A stretch of 64,000 nucleotides of DNA from NCBI GenBank assembly GCA_000004695.1, contig CM000152.2:3680001-3744000 (forward strand). Direction: 5' to 3'. Within the stretch, counting starts at the first letter, position 1. Every line of letters starts with the position of its first letter. The notes beneath the pieces are model-generated. The model made no database searches, was not told the origin of the DNA, and saw only the letters and a program-made list of their open reading frames with translations. The position numbers were made by a program, and so were the translations under genes. This DNA comes from Dictyostelium discoideum. Taxonomy: Eukaryota. Below are positions 52,601 to 55,545 of the stretch, in pieces.

Positions 52601-53417
52601 AAATTCATCAATTGATAATTCAGTAACAACTCCTTCAAAATCTTTATTACGATTATTAAACTCTAGTAAAAGTAATAATAATAGTAATAATAAAAAAGAA
52701 AAACAGTGTAATTATAATAGAGAAGGAGAAGATGATGAAGGAAGAGGAGAGGAACAAAAAGAAAAAGAAGAAGAAAAAGAAGATGAAGATTTTCCAAATA
52801 TAATAACAAATGATATAGCGTATATTTTATTATCAAAATCAATTGCAAAATCAATTGAAAGTGAATCATGTTTACATGGTACAACTCAAGAGACAATGTT
52901 AATTTTTACCGATATTGTTAGTTCATTTATTGGTAAAATTGGAAAATTATTTAATAAATATTATTCAAATAATGGTTTACCAAATAATAAATCAACAACA
53001 ACCCAAACAACACCAACAACACAATTACAACCGCCGCCACCACCACCATCATTATCATTACCTCCATCCCTTTTATTAAATTCAATTGTTACAGATATTT
53101 TTGGTGATAGTTTAGGTATATTATTATTAAAAGATTATATGATTAAAAAATCCAAAAATCAACAAATCTATGATGACCCTTTGTTTGAATTAGAGGTGGA
53201 GTTTGAAAATGATCATTTACAATCTGATAATATTTTACAAAATAATAATGGGGATATTGATATCAATGAATCTATGGAAATTGATATCCTTGGTGAAGAT
53301 GATATCATTGATATAGATGATACAGTTAACACCATCACTACCACCACCACAACAACTACTACTTTCTCTTACAATACCAACAAGAAAAGAAAATTACCAA
53401 ATGAAAAGGAAAACTAG
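49649..53417 (+). CDS. Bromodomain-containing protein, join(49649..50818, 50985..53417), 1201 aa
   Basis: Exon 1 ends …[61 protein letters not shown] at cct|gtaagt (phase 0). 166-nt intron = poly(A) + (AAT)n. Acceptor aatgtag|tct continues SGKVYVEHANKMEKKSKDLM… in frame with ORF 51018 (an in-frame TAG lies immediately upstream of the acceptor). The two halves complete a canonical bromodomain (YYxIIKxPMDL … NCxxYN). Coiled-coil/Q-rich N-terminus; poly-N, poly-T and acidic tracts. Confidence 0.8.
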
Positions 53418-53420
53418 GGT

Positions 53421-55545
53421 TTATTTGGTCATTACCCAAGATACATTGAAGAACCTGCTGAAATTACATTGTTCATTGATCCAAAACCTATACAAAAACC
53501 AACAACAAACACAACAACTAATAATAATAATAATAATAATAATAATAATAATAATAATAATAATAATAATAATAATAATAATAATAATAATAATAATAAT
53601 AATAATAATAATAATAATAATAATAATAATAATAATAATAATAATAGTAATAGTAATAATAATAATAATAATAATAATAGTAATAGTAATAATAATAATA
53701 ATAATAATAATAATAATAATAATAATAATAATAATAATAATAATAATAATAATAATAATAATAATAATAATAATAATAATAATAATAATAGTATTAATAA
53801 TAATAACCACAATAATAATAATAACAACAACAATAATATTAATAATAATAATAATAATAATAATAATAATAATAATAATAATAATAATAATAATAATATT
53901 AATAATAACAACAACAATAATATTAATAATAATAATAATAATATTAATAATTATAATAATAATTATAATAATAATAATAATAATAATAATAATAATAATA
54001 ATAACAACAACAACAACAACAATAATAATAATAATAATAATTATCCAAAACCAATTCAAGCATCAACACAAACAGGTAATTTAGGAATTCAACAACAATT
54101 ACAACAGCAACAATTACATCAATTACAACAACAACAACAATTACAACAGCAGTATCAAATTCAACAACAACAATTACATTTACAACAACAACAACAACAA
54201 CAACAACAACTTAAACTACAACAAATTCAATTTCAACAAATGCAACAACAACAACAACAACAACAACTACAACAACAAACAAGACAACCATCTCAACCAC
54301 AAACACCTCAAATGCAATCACAACCTCAAACACCTCAAATATTATCACAACCACAACAACAATTACAACAATTACAACAACAACAACTACAACAGCAACA
54401 ACAACTTCAGCAACAACAACTTCAACAGCAACAGTTGTTTCAACAACAACAACAACAACAACAACAACAACAACAACAGCAACAACAACAACAACAACAA
54501 CAACAACAACAACAACAATTACTACACCCACAGCAAATGCAAATACAACAAAATTTACAACAACCACTTCAACAAATACAACAACAACAACAAATACAAC
54601 AACAGCAGCAGCAGCAACTTCAACAACAACAACAACAACAACAACAACAACAACAACAACAACAACAACAACAACAACAACAACAACAACAACAACAACA
54701 ACAACAACACCATCAGCAACTTCAACAGCTTCAACCACAGCAACAGCAACAGCTTCAACAACTTCAACCACAGCAACTTCAACAACTTCAACAGCTTCAA
54801 CAGCTTCAACAACTTCAACAACTTCAACAACTTCAACCACAGCAACTTCAACAACTTCAACAACTTCAACAACTTCAACCACAGCAACTTCAACAACCAC
54901 AACAACTTCAACCACAACAACTTCAACAACAACAACTTCAACAACAACAACAACCTCAACAGCAACAACAACAACCACAACAACAGCCACAACAACAACC
55001 ACAACAGCAACAACAACCTCAATATCAAACCACATTCCAATCTATTGCAAGCCCAGTATCAACGGCCAATAACAAATACACCTTCATTATCATCTTCTAC
55101 AACAGGAACTGCGAATACCTCAACCTCTTCATCATCAAATAAAAAAGTTTCAACAAAACCAAAAGAAAAAGAAAAAGAAAGAGAAAAAGAAAAAGAAAAA
55201 GATAAAGAAAAAGATAAAGAGAAAGAAAAGGATAAAGAAAGAGAAAAAGAAAAAGAAAGAGAAAGAGAAAAAGAAAAGGATAGAAAGTTTAAAAAGGTTA
55301 AAAAAACAGAATCAAAAAAAGAATCAAAAAAATCATTAAATGATTCATCAAATAGCGATATTAACACTTCAGTTGAGCAACATTCACCACTTTCTCCTCA
55401 ACCAATTTCATCTTCAAAACCAACACCACCTCCAGTATCTTCAAAACAACCACAAACAACGCAATCAAATACTACTACCACTCAAGATTCTATACCACCA
55501 ATTGAACAAAAGAAAAAGAGAGGTAGACCTCAAAAAAAACAATAA
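53421..55545 (+). CDS. Poly-N / poly-Q / KE-repeat / AT-hook region in the same frame as the bromodomain ORF after a single TAG (53415-53417); currently two overlapping ORFs (53469..55142 and 55045..55545, +1 frame)
   Basis: Codons directly after the TAG read GLFGHYPRYIEEPAEITLFIDPKPIQKP… with no intervening stop; 53469-51018 is divisible by 3. C-terminal ORF ends with KE/KD dipeptide repeats and KKKRGRPQKK (AT-hook GRP core). Could be a 3' extension of the bromodomain gene (sequencing error or read-through) or an independent gene. Confidence 0.35.

Follow-up and report, generated by a model that had tools for sequence, protein, structure and literature searches.

In a 64,000-nt window of the Dictyostelium discoideum genome (assembly GCA_000004695.1, contig CM000152.2, positions 3,680,001 to 3,744,000 of the forward strand), a long open reading frame (ORF) with a bromodomain is closed by a TAG codon at 53415 to 53417, beyond which the same frame remains open. 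Does this codon end a gene, is it bypassed during splicing or translation, or is it a defect inside one longer gene? We favor the last answer. With a probability of about 0.8, positions 49649 to 55545 of the window (all coordinates are those of the window, and all features described lie on the + strand unless indicated) represent a single gene, DDB_G0280777, which is orthologous to the genes for the SAGA scaffold subunit Spt7/SUPT7L and whose reading frame is interrupted in the AX4 reference, through base-call errors, recent mutations of the strain, or both. The colinearity with orthologues, the uninterrupted ORFs of those orthologues, and the single-gene public annotation are all directly demonstrated below. 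From these we infer that both breaks in the gene (the TAG and a frame change further downstream) reflect faults in either the AX4 sequence or the strain itself, i.e., base-call or assembly errors and/or very recent mutations. The locus is already annotated as a gene, and the problem lies in its sequence or its gene model; it reveals neither a new mechanism nor a gene boundary.

The dictyBase header places DDB_G0280777 on chromosome 3 at position 3729649 to 3735545, which corresponds to 49649 to 55545 in the window (offset, 3,680,000; 5897 nt). The public annotation already covers both halves of the TAG-split locus as one gene. Exon 1 (49649 to 50818; 390 codons) begins at the annotated start, encodes most of the bromodomain, and ends at a splice donor. 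It is followed by intron 1 (50819 to 50984; 166 nt; GTAAGT...TGTAG), which has an AT content of 0.92, includes an (AAT)n repeat, and has a counterpart at the same position (NTDP|S) in the orthologue locus L001. Exon 2 up to the TAG (50985 to 53414; 810 codons) encodes the end of the bromodomain, low-complexity linkers, a GFFPE motif, a histone fold, and an acidic linker. Exons 1 and 2 together contain 1200 sense codons; a preliminary description of this DNA had rightly identified the bromodomain ORF, and its length of 1201 aa included the stop codon. PMC6397043 reports an ErkB-type [S/T]PR phosphosite at residue 553 of DDB_G0280777. In the spliced model this residue is the S of ISPR (TSPISPR; 51630 to 51650), in the linker between the bromodomain and the histone fold, and the published phosphosite therefore confirms both intron 1 and the residue numbering. 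Among the entries covered from a phosphoproteomics supplement, none was a peptide from downstream of the TAG. The gene as a whole would encode, in order, a bromodomain, a Bromo_TP histone fold, an acidic linker, a GLFG...SLFID motif, a poly-asparagine/poly-glutamine (poly-N/poly-Q) tract, an S/T-rich and K/E-rich block, and a C-terminal AT-hook. Two breaks interrupt the exon in this reference sequence, i.e., the TAG at 53415 and a +1 frame change at about 55035 to 55084, one at each border of a low-complexity block of 1.5 kb (53502 to 55040).

The upstream part (1200 aa) is identified as the Dictyostelium Spt7 orthologue because it combines an Spt7-type bromodomain with a Bromo_TP histone fold located C-terminal to it. 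The bromodomain region matched Pfam Bromodomain (E = 6e-19), and its best single-stretch matches in the PDB were the SAGA Spt7 chains 6tb4_E, 9ynu_K, and 6t9i_K (query residues 7 to 143; E values of 7e-28 to 5e-27). The Bromo_TP-type region (FPNIITNDIAYILL...LLLKDYMIKK; 52791 to 53150) was recognized through a profile of four dictyostelid sequences and through Pfam Bromo_TP. Searched against the PDB, the profile reached the histone fold of human SUPT7L (E = 0.012) and TAF8 (E = 0.49). Pfam Bromo_TP was matched by two of the four alignment members (best E = 6e-9), and a match was also recorded for P0005, one of the orthologues introduced below. The D. discoideum sequence alone was below Pfam detection for Bromo_TP, and a phmmer search of its histone-fold region alone against the PDB gave no match, so that SUPT7L was reached only by the four-sequence profile. 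Judging from family membership, the bromodomain would read acetyl-lysine and the histone fold would pair within the SAGA core. Literature searches found no paper linking Dictyostelium with Spt7 and none containing Q54UW4.

The sequence directly after the TAG has the properties of coding sequence. Between 50985 and 55140, this codon is the only stop in frame 0, and the frame stays open for 574 codons past it, up to a TAA at 55140 to 55142; the preliminary description was correct that a single in-frame TAG is present and that the same frame is open beyond it. The post-TAG stretch starts with 28 unique residues (GLFGHYPRYIEEPAEITLFIDPKPIQKP) and continues into poly-N encoded by (AAT)n and then into CAA-rich poly-Q. 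Its first 24 codons (53418 to 53489) encode a conserved motif, GLFGHYPRYIEEPAEITLFIDPKP, of which GLFGHYPR is encoded by 53418 to 53441, and the TAG itself occupies the position of a variable linker residue directly before this GLFG motif. The 84 nt after the TAG have a GC content of 0.33 and a frame-0 coding log-odds of +16 bits, which is matched by only 0.8% of the noncoding 84-nt windows of the 64,000 nt. As a comparison set, we used 13 other ORFs of the window, i.e., 12 long training ORFs and the AT-hook tail ORF ending at 55545. All 13 end in TAA, their frames close 1 to 37 codons after the stop, and their post-stop sequences have GC contents of 0.06 to 0.17 and negative coding scores. 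At the TAG, the coding signal carries on in the same frame, and it switches to frame +1 after about 55080.

If the TAG were a genuine stop of long standing that ended a 1200-aa Spt7, what follows it would be a separate gene, and the locus would consist of two abutting genes, an arrangement that the preliminary description had offered as one possibility. A 1200-aa protein would be of normal length (Spt7 chains in the PDB have 1191 to 1360 aa), every Spt7-defining domain lies upstream of the TAG, and in-frame ATGs are available at 54240, 54312, and 54537. The first of these ATGs, however, is already inside the poly-Q tract, with none ahead of that tract and none in the AT-hook frame, and the conserved GLFG motif starts at the codon directly after the TAG. 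No AT-rich spacer follows the TAG, and a sequence scan from 53300 to 55138 found no AATAAA. Moreover, dictyBase holds one gene here, the constraint downstream of the TAG equals that upstream, and all three orthologues carry both parts in one ORF (see below). We therefore consider two abutting genes barely credible.

Comparison with other dictyostelids, akin to the check on other Dictyostelium species that the preliminary description had proposed, provided the main evidence. An exhaustive HMMER search with 52140 to 53414 as the query retrieved three full-length relatives (E values of 5e-30 to 2e-12): P0003 (GCA_000277445.1, AJWJ01000055.1; 1417 aa; E = 5e-30); P0004 (GCA_001606155.1, LODT01000031.1; 1275 aa), which we take, from the accession prefix, to be from Tieghemostelium lacteum; and P0005 (GCA_000787575.2, DF837591.1; 1123 aa), presumably from Acytostelium subglobosum. 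Word-indexed protein searches returned no dictyostelid at all, P0003 to P0005 included, and their negative results are uninformative for this organism. Two metagenome scans, one with protein patterns and one with the exact junction DNA carrying NNN at the stop, detected no relative.

The three orthologues share the order of elements seen in DDB_G0280777, i.e., bromodomain, GFFPE, histone fold, short acidic linker, GLFG motif, Q-rich tract, K/E-rich block, and AT-hook. Across them the GLFG motif reads GLFG(H/K/R).P.H(I/V).E(P/S)...SLF(I/V)D, and in the four-way alignment with D. discoideum its invariant residues are G, L, F, G, P, E, L, F, and D. The D. discoideum post-TAG peptide aligned with P0004 with 16 of 24 identities (BLASTP E = 3e-11). 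The AT-hook stands at the extreme C-terminus in all three (KKKRGRPHKK), and a DDVYYSLE motif is shared by DDB_G0280777, P0003, and P0004 and was not found in P0005. The orthologue codons at or next to the TAG position are ATA (I), ATG (M), and one that specifies E. Each of the three genomic ORFs is uninterrupted across this point: exon 2 of locus L001 encodes residues 453 to 1399 and runs past it, locus L002 contains one intronless ORF of 1275 codons (1501 to 5328), and the ORF of locus L003 (2373 to 4961) extends from the bromodomain through the stop after the AT-hook. Because these ORFs run through the site, neither an intron nor a stop is conserved there. Intron positions elsewhere vary among the orthologues. 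L001 has two (3357 to 3438 and 6280 to 6416), one of them at the D. discoideum position (NTDP|S) and one splitting the AT-hook (VPEK|KKRGRP), and L003 has a single gap of about 89 nt that lies earlier, in the bromodomain.

The alignment delineates the GLFG..SLFID motif, the Q-rich tract, and the terminal AT-hook as a dictyostelid-specific C-terminal module of Spt7 that has been kept in three distant orthologues and in D. discoideum. The tail is 285 to 390 aa long in P0003 to P0005, which lack the poly-N expansion, the stop, and the frame change, versus 708 aa in DDB_G0280777. The 708 codons after the D. discoideum TAG comprise 24% N and 34% Q, and the tail is best described, on the basis of the alignment, as a lineage-specific poly-N/poly-Q expansion inside a conserved module. 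A Pfam search with the isolated GLFG motif of the four species returned no family. The idea that this motif corresponds to the "FP..HTY" motif of TAF8_C was accordingly left without support and was set aside.

The low-complexity block consists of two parts. The (AAT)n poly-N tract (53502 to 54044) contains about 15 substitution-type interruptions and no frame-breaking indel, and the peptide PKPIQ is present on both of its flanks. The Q/L/P-rich tract (54045 to 55040) is in frame 0 and corresponds in position to a shorter Q-rich tract in the orthologues. The two PKPIQ copies, at 53478 to 53492 (CCAAAACCTATACAA) and 54045 to 54059 (CCAAAACCAATTCAA), differ by two nucleotides, both at synonymous third positions. 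The pair may reflect a small duplication whose copies are separated by the (AAT)n expansion, and it points to coding in frame 0 on either side. AAT repeats are also found in intron 1 (50913 to 50980), and the intergenic spacer that separates two convergent genes, ending at 55545 (+) and 55901 (-), contains a pure (ATT)n microsatellite (55640 to 55810; about 170 nt). Because such repeats occur in an intron and in an intergenic spacer, AAT repeats alone are not evidence of coding at this locus.

A second break lies near 55060. The AT-hook is not in the poly-Q frame; it belongs to frame +1, which is open from 54085 to 55545 and contains no ATG. The end of frame 0 at the TAA at 55140 falls in a stretch that scores as noncoding, and the frame +1 coding signal extends from about 55080 onward. 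The frame must therefore change from 0 to +1 between 55035 and 55084, where any single-base deletion would yield one ORF of 708 codons (53418 to 55545); the GGCC at 55064 to 55067 is a plausible site. The frame +1 tail (55066 to 55545) encodes S/T-rich sequence, a KEKE block, and the AT-hook KKKRGRPQKKQ (55510 to 55542), and it terminates at a TAA (55543 to 55545) that coincides with the annotated end of DDB_G0280777. This TAA lies within an AATAAA, after which comes an A-run, as is typical of a gene end. The RGRP core suggests that the AT-hook would give the C-terminal module a minor-groove contact with AT-rich DNA. With the TAG read as a sense codon and 1 nt deleted, the uninterrupted protein has 1200 + 1 + 708 = 1909 aa. 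The preliminary description had envisaged a protein of about 1900 aa with a bromodomain, poly-Q, and an AT-hook. The orthologues support such a protein as the ancestral and intended gene; that description had missed the second break and, with it, the position of the AT-hook in frame +1.

The two lesions could also be read as signs of a decaying pseudogene or a long-dead tail. In columns that are invariant among the orthologues, D. discoideum departs at 10 of 40 positions upstream of the TAG versus 3 of 12 downstream. The frame-0 sequence after the TAG (53418 to 55139) contains 205 CAA and 26 CAG codons, nearly all in the Q/L/P-rich tract, and none of these 231 codons has mutated to a stop. Because of this intact codon set and the equal divergence on the two sides of the TAG, the tail is unlikely to have been drifting for long as a pseudogene, and the lesions, if real, are probably recent. 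On these grounds, we regard a long-dead tail as unlikely and set this reading aside.

Since the annotated gene span crosses both the TAG and the frame change, the public model must use bridging introns. The preliminary description had stated that no intron of plausible size could remove the stop, which proved incorrect: a 93-nt, in-frame GT..AG segment (bridge A, 53325 to 53417; GTTAAC...AACTAG) ends with the AG of the TAG itself, although its composition argues against a real intron. A second segment of 166 nt (bridge B, 55056 to 55221; GTATCA...AAAGAG) is apparently the one used by the public model across the frame change. Removal of both yields a protein of 1823 aa with a single stop, and, with bridge A removed first, bridge B is the only GT..AG pair that gives this length; DIDDTGLFGHYPR is the junction peptide of the spliced form. 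The UniProt length of "Bromodomain-containing protein DDB_G0280777" is probably 1823 aa. If these segments were real, atypical (exitron-like) introns, retention of bridge A would produce a 1200-aa isoform and its removal a long isoform. Several features are consistent with this: both segments have GT..AG ends and preserve an open frame, the length of bridge A is a multiple of 3 and its end coincides exactly with the TAG, the pair accounts for this probable UniProt length, the public gene span includes both parts, and the 31 codons of bridge A fall in a linker of variable length.

The properties of the two segments nevertheless differ from those of introns in this window. Four clear reference introns have AT contents of 0.90 to 0.97 and donors of GTAAGT or GTATGT, whereas bridges A and B have AT contents of 0.66 and 0.70 and donors of GTTAAC and GTATCA, i.e., neither the very AT-rich body nor the GTA(A/T)GT donor. 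The interiors of both score as coding in the frame of the adjoining exon, with frame-1 log-odds of +25 and +18 bits inside bridge B. None of the three orthologues has an intron at either site. Bridge B, which encodes ITNTPSLSSSTTGTANTSTSSSSNK, would remove S/T-rich and KEKE coding sequence, and the orthologues keep an equivalent S-rich to K/E-rich block in an exon. In-phase GT..AG pairs are, moreover, expected by chance, and three in-phase donors occur within 330 nt of the TAG. We regard real introns at these sites as unlikely. The public model probably bridges both breaks with two artificial introns and thereby deletes about 31 and 55 codons of real coding sequence.

Programmed recoding, i.e., readthrough of the TAG followed by a shift to frame +1 near 55060, would generate a minor long isoform without splicing. 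In its favor, the stop precedes a long, conserved frame that resembles coding sequence, and a TAG is unusual next to the uniform use of TAA in the comparison set. The 3' untranslated regions of D. discoideum normally contain back-up stops soon after the primary stop (PMC7783166), and here none occurs for 574 codons. In the literature that was found, readthrough in Dictyostelium is no more than a hypothesis (PMC11537047). The predicted RNA fold of 53410 to 53510 (-10.8 kcal/mol; z = 0.18 versus shuffled sequences) provided no stimulatory structure downstream of the TAG, and a scan for a suppressor tRNA found none. To our knowledge, the context AAC-UAG-GGU matches no known leaky context. The stop is also not conserved, with the I, M, or E sense codons of the orthologues in its place, and a second, independent recoding event would be required to reach the AT-hook. 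We give recoding hardly any weight.

A further reading is that the TAG is genuine and that two Spt7 isoforms exist: a default 1200-aa core, ending about 100 residues past the histone fold, and a minor long form, made by removal of bridge A or by readthrough, with the prion-like Q/N tract and the AT-hook. If true, this would parallel at the genetic level the difference between SAGA and SLIK, a distinction that yeast produces by truncating Spt7 C-terminally. Such a reading does not by itself account for the frame change near 55060, and we consider two isoforms very improbable.

Our preferred reading thus remains a single Spt7 gene with two defects, and the preliminary suggestion that the TAG is an error or a polymorphism is the most likely status of this stop. 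The chances that one or both defects stem from errors in the reference are roughly even; that both are real, recent mutations is somewhat less likely. Errors are favored at the borders of the low-complexity block because reads entering from the far side have to traverse long simple repeats. The window is not of finished grade everywhere, with a 100-N gap at 19640 to 19739 and isolated Ns at 31762 and 31764. The border positions, the GGCC, and these Ns favor error, especially for the frame change. In favor of a real mutation, turning CAG or TGG into TAG takes a G:C to A:T change of the kind that mutation is expected to cause, including the nitrosoguanidine treatment in the history of axenic strains. 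Several points weigh against a gene broken in this manner. Among Sanger consensus errors, substitutions that introduce a stop are rare, and it would be unusual for two errors to fall within 1.7 kb of each other. The TAG can also be removed in frame with a GT..AG pair, and the public model evidently relies on some bridge of this type.

The relevance of these findings lies mainly in curation, as the public model of the Dictyostelium Spt7 orthologue hides a nonsense codon and a frameshift in the reference. Studies of Dictyostelium SAGA, proteomics searches on this protein, and surveys of Q/N-rich "prion-like" proteins that count the tail are affected. An error in the reference would mean that the gene product is the full-length protein of about 1909 aa; a TAG that is truly present in AX4 would mean that this strain makes a 1200-aa Spt7 that keeps all Spt7-defining domains and lacks the Q/N-rich AT-hook tail.

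Two known systems provide points of comparison. Bridge A resembles exitrons in being 93 nt long, in frame, exon-like in composition, and located inside a long exon. This similarity is purely formal: a stop codon is normally absent from exitrons, whereas bridge A ends in the TAG, and no exitron has been documented for DDB_G0280777. The second system is SAGA itself. The bromodomain region of DDB_G0280777 aligned over about 130 residues with Spt7 of Saccharomyces cerevisiae (6t9i_K) and K. phaffii (6tb4_E), and the Bromo_TP histone fold is common to DDB_G0280777 and the Spt7/SUPT7L family, including human SUPT7L (7ktr_D and 8h7g_I), which has no bromodomain. The GLFG motif, the Q/N-rich tail, and the AT-hook were without a Pfam match and did not align to the PDB Spt7 chains. 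The SLIK/SALSA form of the yeast complex contains an Spt7 that has lost its C-terminal part through post-translational proteolysis, whereas the shortening of DDB_G0280777, if real, would be genetic.

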